Source: Acidobacteriota bacterium (lineage in GTDB: Bacteria > Acidobacteriota > Terriglobia > Bryobacterales > Bryobacteraceae). From it: 64,000 nt of DNA. The DNA is taken from contig JAPKZB010000080.1 of NCBI GenBank assembly GCA_026393985.1, positions 71,584 through 135,583 on the forward strand, in the 5' to 3' direction. Below, piece after piece: positions 28,898 through 53,771 of this stretch. Every line of letters begins with the position of its first letter. Position 1 is the stretch's first letter. The translations under genes and the position numbers were made by a program. The notes below the pieces were generated by a model, which saw only the letters and a program-made list of their open reading frames with translations, was not told the origin of the DNA and made no database searches.

Positions 28898-29680
28898 ATG
28901 TTTTTTTCCAAACCCCGCGTCGCCGCCGTCAGCTACCTCAACACCGTTCCCCTGGTCTGGGGCATGCTGCAGGGGCCCCAAAAAGACGCGGCGGACCTCT
29001 CCTTTTGCCTGCCGGCGGAGTGCTCCGACCGCCTGCGGGACGGCAAGGCCGACATCGGCCTCATCCCCGTCATCGAGGCTGCCCGCCAGAACCTGCCGGC
29101 CGTTCCCGGAACCGGTATCGCCTGCGATGGAGCGGTCCGCAGCATTCTCCTGTTCACCAAAACGCCCTGGACGCGGATCCGCCGCCTCGCCGTCGATCAT
29201 GGCTCCCGCACCTCGGTCATGCTCACGCGCATCCTGCTCCGCGAACGTTTCGGCGTCCAACCGGACCTGGTGGCCATGCGCCCCCACCTGCCCACCATGC
29301 TCGCCGATGCCGATGCCGCCCTCCTCATCGGCGATGCCGCGCTCCGTGTCCAGCCCGAACGCCAACCCTATGAATACCTCGACCTCGGCGCCGCCTGGCA
29401 CGAACTCACCGGCCTACCGATGGTCTTTGCCCGTTGGGCCGGCCCCCATCTGCCCCCCGACGCCGCCACCCTGTTCGACGGTTCCTGGCAGTACGGCCAG
29501 GAACGGCTCCCGGAGATAATCGACCACCAGGCCGACCGTCGCGGTCTCCCCCGCAATCTCGTCCGCGAGTACCTGCAGCATCACATCCGCTTTACCATTG
29601 GCCCGCGGGAACTGCAGGGACTCGACACCTATCTTCACTTCGCCGCCTCCCTCGAACCCGCCCTTAGCCCCCACTCTTAG
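28898..29680 (+). CDS. mqnA: Chorismate dehydratase (futalosine pathway)
   Basis: The N-terminus RVAAVSYLNTVPL matches my recollection of the MqnA/DUF178 family. Adjacent to a radical-SAM Mqn enzyme. Confidence 0.82.
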   Translation: MFFSKPRVAAVSYLNTVPLVWGMLQGPQKDAADLSFCLPAECSDRLRDGKADIGLIPVIEAARQNLPAVPGTGIACDGAVRSILLFTKTPWTRIRRLAVDHGSRTSVMLTRILLRERFGVQPDLVAMRPHLPTMLADADAALLIGDAALRVQPERQPYEYLDLGAAWHELTGLPMVFARWAGPHLPPDAATLFDGSWQYGQERLPEIIDHQADRRGLPRNLVREYLQHHIRFTIGPRELQGLDTYLHFAASLEPALSPHS

Positions 29681-29697
29681 TCCCCCACTCTTAGTCT

Positions 29698-30738
29698 ATG
29701 AGCCACCGCATCTCCACCGACCAAGCTCTCGAGCTGTTCGCTGACCATGACCTGATCGGCCTCGGCATGGCCGCCGACGCCGCCCGTCGCCGTCACCACC
29801 CCCACAACGTCGCCTCTTATATCATCGATCGCAATATTAATTACACCAACGTCTGCACCGAATACTGCAGCTTCTGCGCCTTCTATCGCGCCAAAGGCCA
29901 CGCTGAAGCCTACGTCCATCCGCAAGAGGTCATCTTCGCCAAGATCCAGGAGACCATCGACGTCGGCGGCACCGGCGTTCTCATGCAGGGCGGACTCCAT
30001 CCCGATCTCCCCATCACCTGGTACGAAGATCTCTTTGCCGCCATCAAACAGCGCTTCGCCATCCACCTCCACGTCCTCTCCGCCCCCGAAATCCTCAACA
30101 TCGCCCAGATCAGCGGCCTCTCCGTTCGCGACACCATCGCCCGCCTGCGCGACGCCGGAATGGACTCCATCCCCGGCGCCGGCGCAGAAATCCTCCACGA
30201 CGAGGTCCGCCACCGCATCGCCCGCCTCAAGTGCAACACCGAGGAGTGGCTCAGCGTCCATCGTACCGCCCACCAACTCGGCGTCCGCACCACCGCCACC
30301 ATGATGTGGGGCTGCGGTGAAACCCTCGCCCACCGCGTGCACCATCTCGACGCCCTCCGCCAACTCCAGGACGAAACCGGCGGCTTCACCGCCTTCATCC
30401 CCTGGAGCTTCCAGCGCGACAACACCTCCCTCGGCCGCTTCGTCAAGGAAGAGGCCACCAGCGTCGAATTCCTCCGTACCCTTGCCGTCTGCCGCCTCTT
30501 TCTAGACAACATCGTCAACGTGCAAACCTCCTGGGTCACCCAGGGCCTGAAGGTCTGCCAGCTCGGCCTCCGCTTCGGGGGCAACGACGTCGGCAGCATC
30601 ATGCTCGAAGAGAACGTCGTCTCCCAGGCCGGCGCCAACTTCCATGCCTCCGAGGAGGATCTCCGCCGGATCATCCGCGATGCCGGATTTATCCCCAAGC
30701 AGCGCGACACGCTCTACCGCACCTATTTCCTGAACTGA
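29698..30738 (+). CDS. Radical SAM menaquinone (futalosine pathway) enzyme, MqnC or MqnE
   Basis: NINYTNVCTEYCSFCAFYR contains the CxxxCxxC motif. I cannot separate MqnC from MqnE by eye. Confidence 0.85.
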   Translation: MSHRISTDQALELFADHDLIGLGMAADAARRRHHPHNVASYIIDRNINYTNVCTEYCSFCAFYRAKGHAEAYVHPQEVIFAKIQETIDVGGTGVLMQGGLHPDLPITWYEDLFAAIKQRFAIHLHVLSAPEILNIAQISGLSVRDTIARLRDAGMDSIPGAGAEILHDEVRHRIARLKCNTEEWLSVHRTAHQLGVRTTATMMWGCGETLAHRVHHLDALRQLQDETGGFTAFIPWSFQRDNTSLGRFVKEEATSVEFLRTLAVCRLFLDNIVNVQTSWVTQGLKVCQLGLRFGGNDVGSIMLEENVVSQAGANFHASEEDLRRIIRDAGFIPKQRDTLYRTYFLN

Positions 30739-31592
30739 TCCGCCCAGCCCGCCATCGCCACCCAGTCGAGCAAACCTGCGGTGGCCCCGGCCCGGCGCAC
30801 GCTCAGCGCCCCGGCGGCATTCCCCATCCGCGCCGCCTCCACCACACTCAGCCCCCTGGCCCGCCCTGCCAGAAAGGCCCCGCAAAAGCAGTCCCCCGCC
30901 CCGGTCGAGTCCCTCGTCTCCACCGCGAAGCCCGCCACGGACCTCCCGTCCACCGTGCAACCCTCCCCCCCGCGTTTAACGATCACCGGACAGGGATACG
31001 GCCCCGGCACCCGCACCGCCTCCTCAGCGTTGGCCAGCAGCAGATCTATCAACGGCAGGCACGGGTCAACCACCGCGCCCCATTCCCCCAACCGGTCCCA
31101 GCCCAGGTCCATCGAAGTATTCATCCCCCGCGCCCGCGCCTCGCGCAGTAGCTCCGCCGCGTGCCGCCGGACGTAGGGCATGGCGAAAGGATTGGCCACG
31201 TGCAGATGGTCAAAGCCCCCCGGCAGAGCGAAGGACGCCTCCTGGTTCACCCCGGGATGATGAAACAGCTGGCGCCGGCCATCCGGGTGGAACACGCCCA
31301 CGGTCGCCGCCGTCGCCCCGGCCAGCCGCTCCAGATAGGAGCAGTCCACCCCCGCCTCACCCAACCGCTGCTCCAGCCAATGCCCCGCCGCATCGTCGCC
31401 ACGCGCGCTCAACAGCGCCACCCCGTGCGCCGCCCCGCCCGTCAACTTGCCAAACGTATACGCCGTCGTCCCGCCGTTGCCCCCCAACCCGGCCGTCATC
31501 GAACCGACCCACCGGGTCGTCTCCCACTCCAAACCCTCCACCGGCCCCGCCAGCGTATCCCAAACCAGACTGCCCAGGACCAGCAACCGCAT
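30723..31592 (-). CDS. PfkB-family carbohydrate kinase
   Basis: GGNGGT N-terminal motif and the C-terminal DSTGAGDCFCGAF motif. Confidence 0.8.
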   Translation of the reverse strand: MRLLVLGSLVWDTLAGPVEGLEWETTRWVGSMTAGLGGNGGTTAYTFGKLTGGAAHGVALLSARGDDAAGHWLEQRLGEAGVDCSYLERLAGATAATVGVFHPDGRRQLFHHPGVNQEASFALPGGFDHLHVANPFAMPYVRRHAAELLREARARGMNTSMDLGWDRLGEWGAVVDPCLPLIDLLLANAEEAVRVPGPYPCPVIVKRGGEGCTVDGRSVAGFAVETRDSTGAGDCFCGAFLAGRARGLSVVEAARMGNAAGALSVRRAGATAGLLDWVAMAGWADQFRK

Positions 31593-31603
31593 AGGCCGCG
31601 CCG

Positions 31604-32521
31604 CTACAACTGCCCGCCCAGCAAATTAACCAGAAACGCACGCTCAAGCGGCCACCGTCCCGTCACCACCAAGCCCTGCCGGGAAAACGTCCCGGTGGTC
31701 AGAATCCCGCTCAAATCCGCCGGGTTCGGCTTCTGCTGCACGTTCTCAAGATATTTGCGAAACACCCCAGTCACTCCGCGCAACTGATTTTCCACCCCCG
31801 CCGCCGCCGTCTCGGTCCCACAATCAGCTCGCAACCGCAGCTCAGCTCCCGTTCCCCCAAGATGCAGGCCCAGCGTTACCACCTGAGCCTCCTCCAACGC
31901 CTTGGCAAACAGCTTGGTCCCCGCCGGCAGCGACGCAGACTCGCTCCAGGTCCGGCCCACCCCACCCACCCAAACCGGAGCATCCGGCAGCGCCAGCGGG
32001 CTCGGCGTCCGGTTCTGCAACCGCACGACCGCCCACTCGTCGCTTGAAACCGCCATCCCGATCATCCCCCTCGTGAATGGCGTAAACGAAATGACCCGCG
32101 GCGATGTCGAAGCCGGCAGCCGGCACACCCCGTTCCAGCACTTCCCGCCCGACCGCTCCGTGTGCGTCTGGATCGCCTTCCAGTCAAAACGCCCCGTCGC
32201 CACGACAAACACGTCCGCCCCGGCAAAGCCCAGCAACACCGAATCCAGGTCCTCGCGGTAGTTAAAACCAGTGGCAGCGACAAAGGACCGGTAATCGGGA
32301 TCCTCCGTCACGTTCCCGCCCGAAAGCAAGGCAAACAGCCCGGACCGCCGCATGCTTTCAAGGTCCAGCTGGATCACGGTCCCACCTGCGGGCAGACGGC
32401 TCATCCTCTCCGACAGGGGCGGGATCAACCGGGAGCGATACCATACCAAGCCCCCCCCGATCCCCACGCAGGCGGCCACTACCAGAATGGCCGCCATCCA
32501 ATTATGCCAGCGAAAACCCAT
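31604..32521 (-). CDS. Hypothetical membrane-anchored protein
   Basis: Single N-terminal TM helix. No recognisable domain. Confidence 0.55.
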   Translation of the reverse strand: MGFRWHNWMAAILVVAACVGIGGGLVWYRSRLIPPLSERMSRLPAGGTVIQLDLESMRRSGLFALLSGGNVTEDPDYRSFVAATGFNYREDLDSVLLGFAGADVFVVATGRFDWKAIQTHTERSGGKCWNGVCRLPASTSPRVISFTPFTRGMIGMAVSSDEWAVVRLQNRTPSPLALPDAPVWVGGVGRTWSESASLPAGTKLFAKALEEAQVVTLGLHLGGTGAELRLRADCGTETAAAGVENQLRGVTGVFRKYLENVQQKPNPADLSGILTTGTFSRQGLVVTGRWPLERAFLVNLLGGQL

Positions 32522-32533
32522 CGGCTCAGCCGC

Positions 32534-33589
32534 CTACCTTGACACCGCCACCGTGTCGCCAACCCGCGCGTTCTTCCACAACGCTATGTAGGGAGTCAAC
32601 TCCTTCATCATCTTCCGGAACTGGTCCAGCGTCAGGCTCTGCGCCCCATCGCTCACCGCCTTCTCCGGACACGGGTGCGTTTCCACAATCAAACCATCGG
32701 CGCCAATCGCCACGCCCGCCCGGCACAGCGGCGGCACCAGGCTGCGCTTGCCCACCGCGTGCGAAGGATCAAGCACCACCGGCAGATGCGTCAACTCGTC
32801 CAACACCGAAACGGCAGTGATGTCACACGTGTTCCGCGTCGCGGTTTCAAACGTACGGATACCGCGCTCGCACAGCATGATGTTCGGGTTGCCGTGCGCC
32901 ACAATGTACTCGGCCGACATCAGCAACTCTTTGATCTGCGCACTCAGCCCACGCTTAAGCATAATCGGACGGCCGCAGGATCCCAAACGCTTCAGCAGCG
33001 AAAAGTTCTGCATGTTCCGCGCCCCAATCTGCAGAATATCGGCGTACTCGGCCACCAGATCAACGTCCCTTTCCGCCATCACCTCGGTGATGATCGCCAG
33101 GCCCGTCGCCTCCCGCGCCTTGGCCAACAGCTTCAGGCCATCGCCTTCCATACCTTGAAAATCGTAGGGCGAGGTCCGCGGCTTGAACGCGCCACCGCGC
33201 AGAACCTTCGCGCCGGCCTCGGCCACCGCGTAGGCCGACTCCATGATCTGCGTCTCGTTCTCAACCGAACAAGGACCAGCCATCATGACAAACTCATCAC
33301 CGCCAATCTCCACCGGACCGGTGTGCGTGCGGACCGTAATCACGGTCGGAGTCGACTTGTACTCTTTCGAAACAAACTTGTAGGGCGCCGAGATCCGCAC
33401 CGCTTTTTCCACCTGCGGCATCGCCTCGAGCGACTCGAGACAGTTGGTGACATCGCCTACGCCGACAACGCCAATCACGCAGCGTTCCTCTCCCTCAATG
33501 GCATGAATCTTGTAACCGAAGTGACGGATGCGGTCGCAGACGGCTTCGATATCTTCCTTGGTGCTGTGGAGTTTCATTGAAATGATCAT
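32534..33589 (-). CDS. aroF: 3-deoxy-7-phosphoheptulonate (DAHP) synthase, type I-beta with N-terminal ferredoxin-like regulatory domain
   Basis: As I recall the Thermotoga-type [20 protein letters not shown] corresponds to its N-terminus. Also carries GPCSVE, KPRTSPY and the IQIGARN motif. The start is set at 33589, and the upstream extension in the track is leader sequence. Confidence 0.92.
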
Positions 33590-33630
33590 GGGTCTGTTCT
33601 GCTTTAAAAGTATGGGCTTCCGAAAATAGG

Positions 33631-33669
33631 AAAAGCGAAAACACAAAAACCCACTCTTTCGAGTGGGTT
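33631..33669 (-). terminator. Intrinsic terminator (attenuator) in the aroF leader
   Basis: The minus strand reads AACCCACTC-GAAA-GAGTGGGTT followed by TTTGTGTTTTCGCTTTT. It ends about 40 nt before the aroF ATG. Confidence 0.7.
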
Positions 33670-33721
33670 GGTTTTTTGGATTAAGAACCTTTCGAGTCCT
33701 ACCTCCGGGCCAACGCCACTC
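33661..33721 (-). promoter_or_regulatory. Candidate antiterminator helix competing with the attenuator
   Basis: GAGTGGCGTTGG (33721-33710) is complementary to CCAACCCACTC (33671-33661). That gives 11 bp with one bulged C, and it uses the 5' arm of the terminator. Confidence 0.5.
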
Positions 33722-33782
33722 GTTCAATCCGGCAATAACGCCAAAATCGAAACGCGCGAAAGCTGTGCACCGGGGCTGACAT
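33699..33782 (-). CDS. Candidate leader peptide [27 protein letters not shown]
   Basis: AGGAGA lies 3 nt before the ATG. The ORF has 27 codons. F, F, F, W and Y fall within nine consecutive codons, and the stop is 8 nt past the antiterminator segment. Confidence 0.55.
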
Positions 33783-33873
33783 CTTCTCCTAGTGTATAGG
33801 CACCCGGAACAGATTGCAAGAGGTAGTAAACAGGTAATTTTTTCGTTACACCTTGCCAAGGTGTTATAGACCC

Positions 33874-34452
33874 CTACCAGGCCCGCGACCAGCGCGGCCC
33901 GGGCTTATCGTTTAGCTCCCGCAAAGCGGCCTGCGCCTGGGCGTCCACCTCCAGTTTCCGCCCGAACAGCCACAGCAGGTCGCTCAGTCGGTTCAGATAC
34001 GCCAGCACATGCGGCGCCAACTCTTCCTCCTCGCCCAACCGCACCACGCATCGCTCCGCCCGGCGGCAAACCGTCCGCGCCAGATCATAAAACGCTCCCG
34101 CCGGGTCCCCCCCCGGCACCGACCAGTCGCTCAGCAACCCGCTCACCGCCTCGAGCGCATGCACCTGCCCGGTCAATTCATCCACCATCGCCTGCGTCAC
34201 CGGCGGAGCGCCCTTCCGCGCCTCGGTGGGCGTTGCCAGCGCCGCCGCCACCTGAAACAGCTCCCGCTGAATCGCCAGGGTCGCCGTGGCGATCCCCTCG
34301 TCGCTGCAAATGGACCGCGCAAAACCCAGCGCGGCGTTCAGTTCATCCACCGTGCCGTAGGACTCGACCCGCAAAGCCCCCTTCGAAACACGTTGGCCCC
34401 CGACGAGGCTGGTCTGGCCGGCATCGCCGAGCTGAGTTGCAATAGATGTCAT
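33874..34452 (-). CDS. PduO-type ATP:cob(I)alamin adenosyltransferase
   Basis: [31 protein letters not shown] motif. Confidence 0.9.
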
Positions 34453-34475
34453 GGTGTTTTTAGCCGAAGTGTTTT

Positions 34476-35876
34476 TCAGGCAAAAAGCCGGTCGTGAACC
34501 TTTCCCTTGCCATCTCTAGTGACGTAAAAAGGGCGCTGTTCGATTTCGTATTTTGTATCGGGAGCGATTCCCAGGGCCGAATACAGCGAGGCATGCAGGT
34601 CTTCGATCCCAATCGGGTCCTTAATCGTCTTGCACGGGCGCTCCGTCGCGGTCTCCCCGTAAACGAACCCCTTGCGAATGCCGCCGCCAAACGCCAGCAC
34701 GCTCACGGCGTCCGTAAAGTGCCGGTGCATCCCGTAATGCTTGGTCTCGGTCATCACCTCGGGCACGGTTACCTGGTTTTTCACCTCCAGGCCCGGCTTG
34801 CCTTCAGTCATCATGTCGCGGCCAAACTCGGTCGCCACCACCACCAGCGTCTTTTCCAGCAGGCCGCGCTGCTCAAGATCGCAGATCAGTTGCGCAATCG
34901 GAGCGTCGATGGTCCGCTTCATCGCCTCCACGCGCGCATGCCCGTTCTCGTGCGTATCCCAGAAGCGGAACGGGATGTACTCGGTGGTCACTTCAATAAA
35001 TCGCGCCCCGGCCTCCACCATCCGCCGCGCCAGCAGACAGCCCAAACCGAACCGCGACGTGTTATAGGTCCGGTAGCTCTTCTCCGGCTCCAGCGACAAG
35101 TCAAACGCCTTGGCCGCCGGCGAGGTCAGCAGCCGGTGCGCGTTGTCGAGCGAGTTCAAAAAGCTCTCCTTCTGCGCGTTGCTGCCCTGCTCGAGCGGCG
35201 AGGCCGCCAGGATCTTGCGGTACAACTCCCGCCGGCTCGCAAACCGGCTCTGCCCGATCAGCTCATTCGGCCGCGTCACCGCCACGGCGTCCCGCGGGTC
35301 CACAATGTGGAACGGCCCGTACTCGGCGCCCAGAAAACCGGCCGTGTGAAACGCCTTCACCGCATCGGACTCCCCGCCAATTTCGAGGTTCTGCCCAATC
35401 GACAGAAACGCCGGAATATCCGGGTTCTTCTTGCCGAGTGTCCGCGCCACAAACGCGCCGAAATGCGGACACGCCACACTCTGCGGCGGCGCATAGCCCG
35501 TATGCCAGTGGTACTGATGCCGCGAATGCAGAATGAAGCCCAAATCGCCCACCCGGTGCGACCGGATCAGCGTCCCGCGGTCGAGCACCCCGGCGATCTT
35601 CTCAAGACCCTCGGAGATCTGCACCCCGTCGACGGCCGTTGGAATCGGCTTGAAGGTCGACAGCACCCGGTCGCTCGCCAGGCCGGTCGAAAACGGCGTG
35701 TACCGCTTCGGGTCAAACGTCTCGGTCTGCGCCATGCCGCCGGCCATCCACAGCAGAATCATGCTATCGGCCTTGCCCGTGCGCGGGGCCGATACCAGCC
35801 GGGGGCTCGCCCCGTGCAGCGCCGCCAGGGTGGCCGTGGCCCCGTGGCGAAGGAAAAAGCGGCGATCAATCGACAT
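34476..35876 (-). CDS. DUF1501 (sulfatase-like) protein with Tat signal
   Basis: Begins MSIDRRFFLRHGATATLAAL, and the family-typical core includes the FGR motif. The start at 35876 overlaps the stop of the upstream gene. Confidence 0.88.
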   Translation of the reverse strand: MSIDRRFFLRHGATATLAALHGASPRLVSAPRTGKADSMILLWMAGGMAQTETFDPKRYTPFSTGLASDRVLSTFKPIPTAVDGVQISEGLEKIAGVLDRGTLIRSHRVGDLGFILHSRHQYHWHTGYAPPQSVACPHFGAFVARTLGKKNPDIPAFLSIGQNLEIGGESDAVKAFHTAGFLGAEYGPFHIVDPRDAVAVTRPNELIGQSRFASRRELYRKILAASPLEQGSNAQKESFLNSLDNAHRLLTSPAAKAFDLSLEPEKSYRTYNTSRFGLGCLLARRMVEAGARFIEVTTEYIPFRFWDTHENGHARVEAMKRTIDAPIAQLICDLEQRGLLEKTLVVVATEFGRDMMTEGKPGLEVKNQVTVPEVMTETKHYGMHRHFTDAVSVLAFGGGIRKGFVYGETATERPCKTIKDPIGIEDLHASLYSALGIAPDTKYEIEQRPFYVTRDGKGKVHDRLFA

Positions 35877-53728: not shown

Positions 53729-53771
53729 AGAGCCCGGTTCTCCCCCGCGGAGAACCGGGCTCTCTGTTTTC
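53729..53771 (+). terminator. Intrinsic terminator
   Basis: GAGCCCGGTTCTCC-CCCGC-GGAGAACCGGGCTC followed by TCTGTTTT. Confidence 0.8.

Follow-up and report, generated by a model that had tools for sequence, protein, structure and literature searches.

The closest described parallels to the system reported here lie in front of aroF genes in other phyla. In Corynebacterium glutamicum, the aroR peptide, with its Phe-Tyr-Phe stretch, precedes aroF, and the account in PMC11802643 (Neshat et al. 2014; first noted in PMC4046766) describes an attenuator that was shown experimentally and that is reported to respond to Phe limitation, but not to Tyr. A leader peptide without a ribosome-binding site, that of Corynebacterium ilvB, is cited in PMC4046766. 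In Acholeplasma, the uORFC-13-1 motif is a predicted upstream open reading frame (uORF) found exclusively upstream of aroF (PMC8632094). For Acidobacteria, a 2010 survey left almost none of its predicted attenuators with an assigned function (PMC2965389), and our literature search found no description of an aromatic attenuator in this phylum. Here we analyse a 64,000-nucleotide (nt) stretch of a soil metagenome contig from an acidobacterium (JAPKZB010000080.1; the whole stretch is called the window), in which a short open reading frame (ORF) rich in codons for phenylalanine, tryptophan and tyrosine (F, W and Y), followed by an intrinsic terminator, precedes aroF, the gene for 3-deoxy-7-phosphoheptulonate (DAHP) synthase. 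Judged from its sequence and from folding models, this leader very likely controls transcription of the DAHP synthase gene by ribosome-mediated (leader-peptide) attenuation. The original prediction, made from the same DNA, had presented such a switch as new; this appears to hold for Acidobacteria, where we found no description, but was too strong as a general claim, given the aroF leader attenuators known in C. glutamicum and predicted in Acholeplasma.

All parts of the element lie on the minus strand. The leader ORF comprises 27 codons plus a stop, from an ATG at 33782 to a TAG at 33701..33699 (33782..33699). F, W or Y is encoded at five of nine consecutive codons in the cluster FRAFRFWRY (33761..33735), namely TTT at 33761-59, TTT at 33752-50, TTT at 33746-44, TGG at 33743-41 and TAT at 33737-35. 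The last leader codons contain segment 2, CGAGTGGCGTTGG (33722..33710), the 5' strand of a predicted antiterminator, and its end is 8 nt from the leader stop codon. Segment 3, CCAACCCACTCG (33671..33660), is at once the 3' strand of that antiterminator and the 5' arm of the terminator. In the original prediction the two segments had been given as GAGTGGCGTTGG (33721..33710) and CCAACCCACTC (33671..33661). The intrinsic terminator (33669..33631) consists of the hairpin AACCCACTC-GAAA-GAGTGGGTT, with a 9-base-pair (bp) stem and a GAAA loop (33669..33648), and the U-rich tract TTTGTGTTTTCGCTTTT, which directly follows the hairpin and ends at 33631, 41 nt from the start of aroF. The aroF gene (33589..32534) encodes a type I-beta DAHP synthase with an N-terminal FXD domain, as seen in matches to PF00793 (2.9e-78), PF18152 (3.8e-18), NF006421 (474 bits, cut-off 335) and TIGR01361. 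When checked on the minus-strand sequence, every coordinate of the original prediction was correct, and the aromatic-rich 27-codon ORF that it had placed upstream of a type I-beta DAHP synthase is indeed there.

No stop codon interrupts the aroF reading frame between its ATG and a TTG further upstream, at 33859; the resulting 441-aa ORF (32534..33859, minus strand) crosses the terminator and the leader. Alignment with orthologues from residue 1 (MIISMKLH) favours the ATG at 33589. Automatic annotation could over-extend aroF and so conceal the leader; an AroF identical to that of the window is present on 17 contigs, and gene callers left the mini-ORF uncalled.

To collect related loci, the AroF protein was used to search one genome per species together with JGI metagenomes, yielding 160 related loci. 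Among 166 aroF loci that were fetched, 49 besides the window have an F/W/Y-rich short ORF of 14-32 codons, followed by a terminator, just upstream of the DAHP synthase start. That the entire arrangement is kept at these 49 loci is the decisive evidence that it did not arise by chance. The loci fall into two sequence families. Family B comprises 38 loci and the window, with AroF proteins 53-83% identical to the window's and record titles naming Bryobacterales, Solibacteraceae, Sulfopaludibacter, Acidoferrum/Acidoferrales and Terriglobia. Its members share one layout: a TTGnnn-17-TAnnnT promoter, a start codon (ATG; GTG once), an ORF of 14-27 codons (e.g., MRYPAYTFAYRFWWRSPAY, MFFTYAGWFSFRFWRFTPSG and MNRGAYSYWFRFWYPPI), then, at the stop codon or adjoining it, a conserved segment (GAGTGGCGTTGG or CGAGGGGCG), and a CCCACTC...GAGTGGG hairpin with a T-run.

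Family T comprises 11 loci (L035, L043, L045, L059, L124, L128, L133, L134, L159, L165 and L166) titled Terriglobales or unclassified Acidobacteriota, with AroF about 51-53% identical to that of the window. The leaders begin with MTRF or MPRF (e.g., MTRFSTFRLFGRYWFPFAAAVQNRSESPEK) and carry a second F/Y/W cluster further on. The terminator, GCCGCGA...TCGCGGC, is unrelated in sequence to that of family B. A copy of its 3' arm, TCGCGGC, lies upstream, just past the aromatic codons and within F-A-A-A codons; unlike in family B, the leader stop codon is about 30-40 nt beyond this segment 2. One family-T locus, L043, is labelled Candidatus Aquilonibacter (Vulcanimicrobiota), which suggests a mis-binned contig or gene transfer. 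Three more loci contain other aromatic-rich mini-ORFs (...GYACFAFYFTSP... at L118:1-200, MDLRHLWSWWFYFSG... at L132:1320-1500 and ...GFCFGWYFYRP... at L163:1320-1500), each followed by a different terminator hairpin, suggesting that the same solution arose or diverged repeatedly. At L017:2920-2990, L020:840-880 and L088:500-560, a CCCACTC...GAGTGGG hairpin with a T-run starts about 12-20 nt past a -10 box.

The signal in the leader ORFs is specific to their reading frame. Of the 1083 residues in 48 unique leaders, 310 (28.6%) are F, W or Y; the figure is 4.5% for the neighbouring AroF proteins, and 6-7% when this DNA is read in either of the two other frames, which each contain 33-34 stop codons. 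F is present in 48/48 unique leaders, W in 46 and Y in 45, and all three occur together in 43/48. The peptides otherwise vary in length and sequence, and such free variation fits a leader peptide, not a functional small protein. Rare codons are enriched in the leaders relative to aroF: TTT supplies 74% of Phe codons versus 31%, TAT 49% of Tyr codons versus 24%, and CGA 37% of Arg codons versus 8%.

Two evaluations of the terminator energy in the window gave -15.0 and -15.3 kcal/mol. In a 20-sequence alignment, 100% of cells are paired, compensatory changes are present in three pairs, and the observed pairing and covariation values were reached by 0/500 shuffles. RNAalifold recovered the terminator hairpin as the sole conserved structure in 36 family-B sequences and, in the 36 family-B and 13 window-subtype leaders alike, returned no consensus structure beyond it. 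We therefore see no conserved aptamer, which argues against a riboswitch. The whole window leader folds more stably than its shuffles (z = -2.97). Our own scan of the 64 kb, on both strands, identified seven hairpin-plus-T-run sites with a stem of at least 7 bp. At the six sites other than the aroF leader, no ORF enriched in a single kind of amino acid lies ahead of the hairpin, and several of these sites coincide with the end or the interior of a long ORF. Covariance model R1, run over the 64-kb window, detected no second full-length copy of the element.

In the window, segment 2 is predicted to pair with 33671..33660 in a 12-bp antiterminator helix with one bulged C (-16.75 kcal/mol). Segment 2 is nearly invariant in relatives. 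The antiterminator register in family B leaves 74% of cells paired, versus 28-45% when the partner is slid, and in 19/20 sequences the partner that pairs best with the terminator arm is situated between -24 and +16 nt relative to the leader stop. In L007, the two terminator arms as well as segment 2 have CGCTC/GAGCG in place of CACTC/GAGTG. Segments 2 ending in GTTGG accompany CCAAC or CCAGC flanks while CGAGGGGCG-type segments accompany other flanks. Per-sequence z-scores for the antiterminator duplex are individually weak (-0.1 to -4.5) because a 9-nt GC-rich arm easily finds partners; the antiterminator was therefore judged by position, register and a between-family test instead. Minimum free energy (MFE) folds add a leader hairpin, in which segment 1 (33771..33756) forms the 5' side and pairs with segment 2 (the 1:2 helix, an anti-antiterminator). 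The predicted fold contains this helix in 13/13 members of the window's GTTGG subtype, with codons about 4-8 paired to segment 2 and the regulatory codons enclosed. An alignment test that used the structure from one sequence gave 62.7% of cells paired, versus 37-51% when the partner was slid, and 12 pairs with double changes, a count reached by 12/500 shuffles.

We modelled how ribosome position would affect these alternatives. In a co-transcriptional version, the RNA ended before the terminator 3' arm, the ribosome masked up to 12 nt beyond the A-site codon, and the terminator arm was called paired upstream if at least 5 of its 7 core nt were so paired. A ribosome on an F/W/Y codon left the arm paired upstream in 37/39 members of family B and 9/11 of family T; with the ribosome at the stop codon, these numbers were 3/39 and 1/11. 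For the window itself, 7/7 core nt were paired upstream in the stalled state, 0/7 at the stop codon and 4/7 in naked RNA. The model thus agrees with the suggestion, made on first inspection, that a ribosome at the stop codon 8 nt past segment 2 would mask it. The two helices had also been proposed to exclude each other. Comparative and folding analyses support the mutually exclusive logic. When the complete window leader is folded with no ribosome present, the terminator state, which includes the 1:2 helix, is favoured (-57.7 versus -47.3 kcal/mol for the antiterminator state). With a ribosome at codon 13 the two become isoenergetic (terminator -32.0, antiterminator -32.1 kcal/mol). Since the antiterminator is made first, the order of synthesis should decide between isoenergetic states, and the antiterminator would win kinetically. 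In full-length MFE folds with a masked ribosome the terminator usually still formed, being thermodynamically at least as stable; the states were separated only by the co-transcriptional version, prior to the 3' arm.

Upstream of the leader ORF, the family-B alignment reveals a promoter of sigma-70 type, to judge by its sequence. Its -35 box, TTGCAA, is at 33819..33814, and a 17-nt spacer separates this from the -10 box, TACACT, at 33796..33791. Nearly all family-B relatives have TTGnnn at 17±1 nt upstream of the -10 box; in the alignment the first T of TTG and the A and T of TAnnnT are invariant, and the G is nearly so. The promoter had been listed as a weak candidate, but 'weak' does not describe it: few parts of the element are as well conserved. 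At family-B loci with a called box, 6-12 nt (mode 7-9) separate the -10 box from the leader start codon; in the window the distance is 8 nt (AGGAGAAG, 33790..33783). This stretch differs in every relative. An AGGAGA within it had been read as a Shine-Dalgarno sequence. We do not retain that assignment: no relative conserves the motif, and from its place after the -10 box and ahead of the ATG it probably coincides with the start of transcription or precedes it. Transcription usually starts about 7 nt past the -10 box, and this promoter geometry would place the start of the window transcript at about 33784, 0-3 nt before the AUG. With the -10 box so near the ATG, the mRNA from which the leader ORF would be translated is probably leaderless, or almost so. 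Such a reading fits the prediction that roughly 13% of genes in acidobacterial genomes are leaderless (PMC3160421) and the Corynebacterium leader peptides that do without a ribosome-binding site (PMC4046766).

Sequence anatomy, its conservation, terminator pairing with covariation, the conserved complementarity of the antiterminator and energetic plausibility all point to the following mechanism. RNA polymerase would begin at the conserved promoter, and ribosomes would read the leader ORF from the (nearly) leaderless RNA. With charged tRNA-Phe, tRNA-Trp and tRNA-Tyr in ample supply, a ribosome would reach the stop codon and cover segment 2 (33722..33710); the terminator hairpin (33669..33648) with its U-tract could then form, and RNA polymerase would halt before aroF. 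If any one of the three were scarce, the ribosome would stall in FRAFRFWRY, the 1:2 hairpin would melt and segment 2 would be free. Once the 5' arm of the terminator had been transcribed, free segment 2 would pair with it, no terminator would form and aroF would be transcribed, the two downstream genes probably being read along with it. Transcription of aroF would in this way answer to the supply of aromatic amino acids.

One feature of the leaders extends beyond their amino acid content. A rare codon pair, CGA-TTT (Arg-Phe), is found in frame in 36/48 leaders, from both families (33749..33744, within the FRAFRFWRY cluster, in the window). Its position is nt 21-36 of the ORF in family B and codons 3-4 in family T. 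CGA-TTT encodes 37/50 Arg-Phe dipeptides (74%), versus about 2.5% expected from aroF codon usage. The pairing partners of CGA-TTT covary (CGAUUUUGGG/CCCAAAGUCG in L099, CCGGUUCUGG/CCAGAUCCGG in L108); thus, pairing alone does not account for the retention of CGA-UUU. Decoding of CGA, which relies on inosine:A wobble, is inefficient, and we speculate that CGA-UUU could act as a programmed slow step just ahead of a Phe codon. A more far-reaching proposal would be that leaderless tri-aromatic attenuators are Terriglobia-wide, sense the charging of tRNA-Phe, -Trp and -Tyr together at the entry to the shikimate pathway, and have their sensitivity set by a CGA-UUU ribosome brake. We consider this proposal unlikely in its full form; if true, sensing would be programmed by a codon pair and not by simple repetition of regulatory codons. 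We also looked in the alignments for a repressor operator in the form of a palindrome around CGATTT, and none was consistent across sequences.

Several findings weigh against a leader-peptide attenuator, or against parts of it. The window on its own provides moderate evidence, suggestive and not conclusive: among dinucleotide shuffles of the 284-nt intergenic region, 2.9% (P = 0.029) contained an ORF (ATG or GTG start, 10 codons or more) in which F/W/Y took up 5 or more of 9 codons. Its aroF has no obvious Shine-Dalgarno sequence. About ten close orthologues are without the element (e.g., L021, L022, L046, L090, L092, L094 and L098), and covariance model R1 uncovered no hidden copies at the orthologous loci that lack a leader; L017, L020 and L088 have the promoter and the terminator hairpin with no leader ORF, and the covariance model matches only their terminator part. 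These three may be constitutively attenuated or decayed, or may put the hairpin to some other use. The alignment of orthologues bears out the original prediction in that the mini-ORF and the segments are conserved and compensatory changes occur in the terminator, but antiterminator covariation within family B is not above that of shuffles, the segments being too conserved. The between-family test does support the antiterminator, terminator arms forming stronger duplexes with their own upstream region than do the other family's arms (-16.1 versus -12.7 kcal/mol, Wilcoxon p = 1e-6), but it ignores phylogenetic non-independence. Alignment support for the 1:2 helix is moderate, and this helix is not predicted in all subtypes. 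Naked truncated RNA favours the antiterminator, the arm being paired upstream in 28/39 members of family B and 10/11 of family T, so that one leg of the trp model, in which an untranslated leader terminates, may not hold everywhere.

We weighed three other explanations against the same data. The leader RNA might be sensed directly by something other than a translating ribosome, for instance a regulatory protein, a small ligand or an uncharged tRNA, which would stabilise either helix, with the F/W/Y codons and CGAUUU serving as nucleotide motifs. This would account for the retention of CGATTT as nucleotides in 36 of the 48 leaders at positions that differ between families, which coding alone does not explain, and for segment 2 and terminator sequences that are unusually invariant across orders. 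Against it, the signal is specific to one open frame, with 33-34 stops in each other frame; the start codon keeps a fixed distance from the -10 box, and F/W/Y enrichment is constant while the peptide varies. RNAalifold found no conserved structure upstream of the terminator, and a scan of 33300..34100 against Rfam at E values up to 10 returned sub-threshold hits only, with no T-box or riboswitch match and no family reaching even half its gathering score; the best matches to Phe_leader (RF01859) reached 20.1 and 16.1 bits, where the gathering score is 55, so the leader belongs neither to that family nor to any other in Rfam. We judge direct sensing to be very unlikely.

Promoter, short ORF and strong terminator do make up a complete small transcription unit, and could in principle be an independent gene for a small protein or small RNA, with aroF served by its own promoter past the hairpin. 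The space past the hairpin hardly allows for one: the U-tract ends only 18-27 nt from the aroF ATG in seven relatives (L004, L008, L009, L011, L014, L015 and L019), too short for a separate promoter, so that in those relatives aroF could be transcribed only by read-through; the 41 nt of the window likewise leave no promoter room, and a promoter scan of 33000..34500 gave no promoter-like site. The peptides differ in length (14-32 aa) and, aromatic content aside, in sequence, and the unit always adjoins aroF despite differing upstream genes. An independent gene is accordingly highly improbable. The least credible explanation, which the comparative data already contradict, is that the hairpin terminates the upstream gene, possibly as a bidirectional terminator, and that the F/W/Y ORF arose by chance. 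This upstream gene, for a cob(I)alamin adenosyltransferase, is on the same strand and ends at 33874, and the hairpin has an A-run 5' and a T-run 3' of it and a terminator score on both strands. A cobA gene is the upstream neighbour in 0 related loci, yet ORF and hairpin are kept; in L003, L005, L009 and L017 the upstream gene is divergent, on the opposite strand, and a conserved promoter separates the upstream gene from the ORF. An upstream gene that is unconserved, and divergent in several loci, indicates that the terminator belongs to aroF and that the element travels with it.

The genes downstream of aroF may share its control. A gene for a 305-aa protein without family match (32521..31604) follows after 12 nt, and a PfkB-family kinase gene (31592..30723) after a further 11 nt, both on the minus strand. 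A terminator scan of 29500..33000 gave no terminator-like sites, and both genes are probably co-transcribed with aroF. In 18 related loci the 305-aa gene again lies directly after aroF (28-41% identity), and this conserved gene pair is presumably under the same attenuator. The N-terminus of the 305-aa protein is hydrophobic, and neither Pfam nor NCBIfam gave a match to it. Pointing towards the aroF cluster in convergent orientation are genes for a radical-SAM/CofH_C protein (29698..30738, plus strand) and, beyond it, a VitK2_biosynth-family protein, families that belong to the futalosine pathway, in which menaquinone is made from chorismate. Elsewhere in the window, a 12-bp perfect hairpin, GCCCGGTTCTCC...GGAGAACCGGGC (53731..53761, both strands), is located between convergent coding regions and is followed on its plus-strand side by tandem repeats, CGCACGCCAGCGAAC; it is probably a bidirectional terminator unrelated to the aroF leader.

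To our knowledge, gene regulation in Acidobacteria, a phylum among the most abundant of soil bacteria, is almost unexplored. The element described here represents a testable cis-regulatory RNA family of about 50 members in two sequence families, which would control the entry of carbon into aromatic amino acid synthesis atop presumed allosteric control via the FXD domain. It would add a phylum to the users of classical attenuation and is a likely case of a leaderless leader peptide outside Actinobacteria. It is also a candidate for a family of its own in Rfam and for inclusion in genome annotation, since gene callers passed over the leader ORF. What distinguishes the element is that codons for all three aromatic amino acids are conserved, that its start is probably leaderless and that it occurs in this phylum. 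The mechanism as such is a textbook one, and the gain is therefore one of breadth, not of principle.

Comparison with the known systems places the acidobacterial leaders as follows. Like E. coli trpL, pheL (RF01859) and pheM, they would follow a four-segment logic, with regulatory codons in or next to segment 1, a 2:3 antiterminator, a 3:4 terminator with a U-tract, and a ribosome at the stop codon masking segment 2. The E. coli leaders have an ORF led by a Shine-Dalgarno sequence, act on terminal-branch or synthetase genes and each respond to one regulatory amino acid; here, the gene encodes the common first enzyme, each of the three end products is represented among the codons and a leaderless ORF is likely. 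In enterobacteria, the thr (Thr, Ile) and ilvGMEDA (Leu, Val, Ile) attenuators are multivalent, and shortage of any one amino acid relieves termination. The acidobacterial leaders resemble these in that a single peptide brings together codons for different end products of one branched pathway, though pathway and phylum differ, and their codon content suggests a comparable multivalence. The Acholeplasma uORFC-13-1 motif likewise places a uORF with Phe codons by an intrinsic terminator, with promoter boxes present; unlike the acidobacterial leaders, it is U-rich, belongs to Mollicutes, has at least one Phe codon and no tri-aromatic cluster, and occurs in an unrelated sequence context. The nearest functional counterpart is the aroR-aroF leader of C. 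glutamicum, also a short aromatic peptide upstream of a DAHP synthase gene, at which stalling raises transcription of the operon; the documented likeness is one of function. Unlike this actinobacterial leader, with Phe-Tyr-Phe only, the acidobacterial leaders combine F, W and Y in 43/48 cases. The AroF of C. glutamicum is of the I-alpha class, as against the type I-beta enzyme with an FXD domain here, and the two aroF attenuators are likely to be of independent origin.

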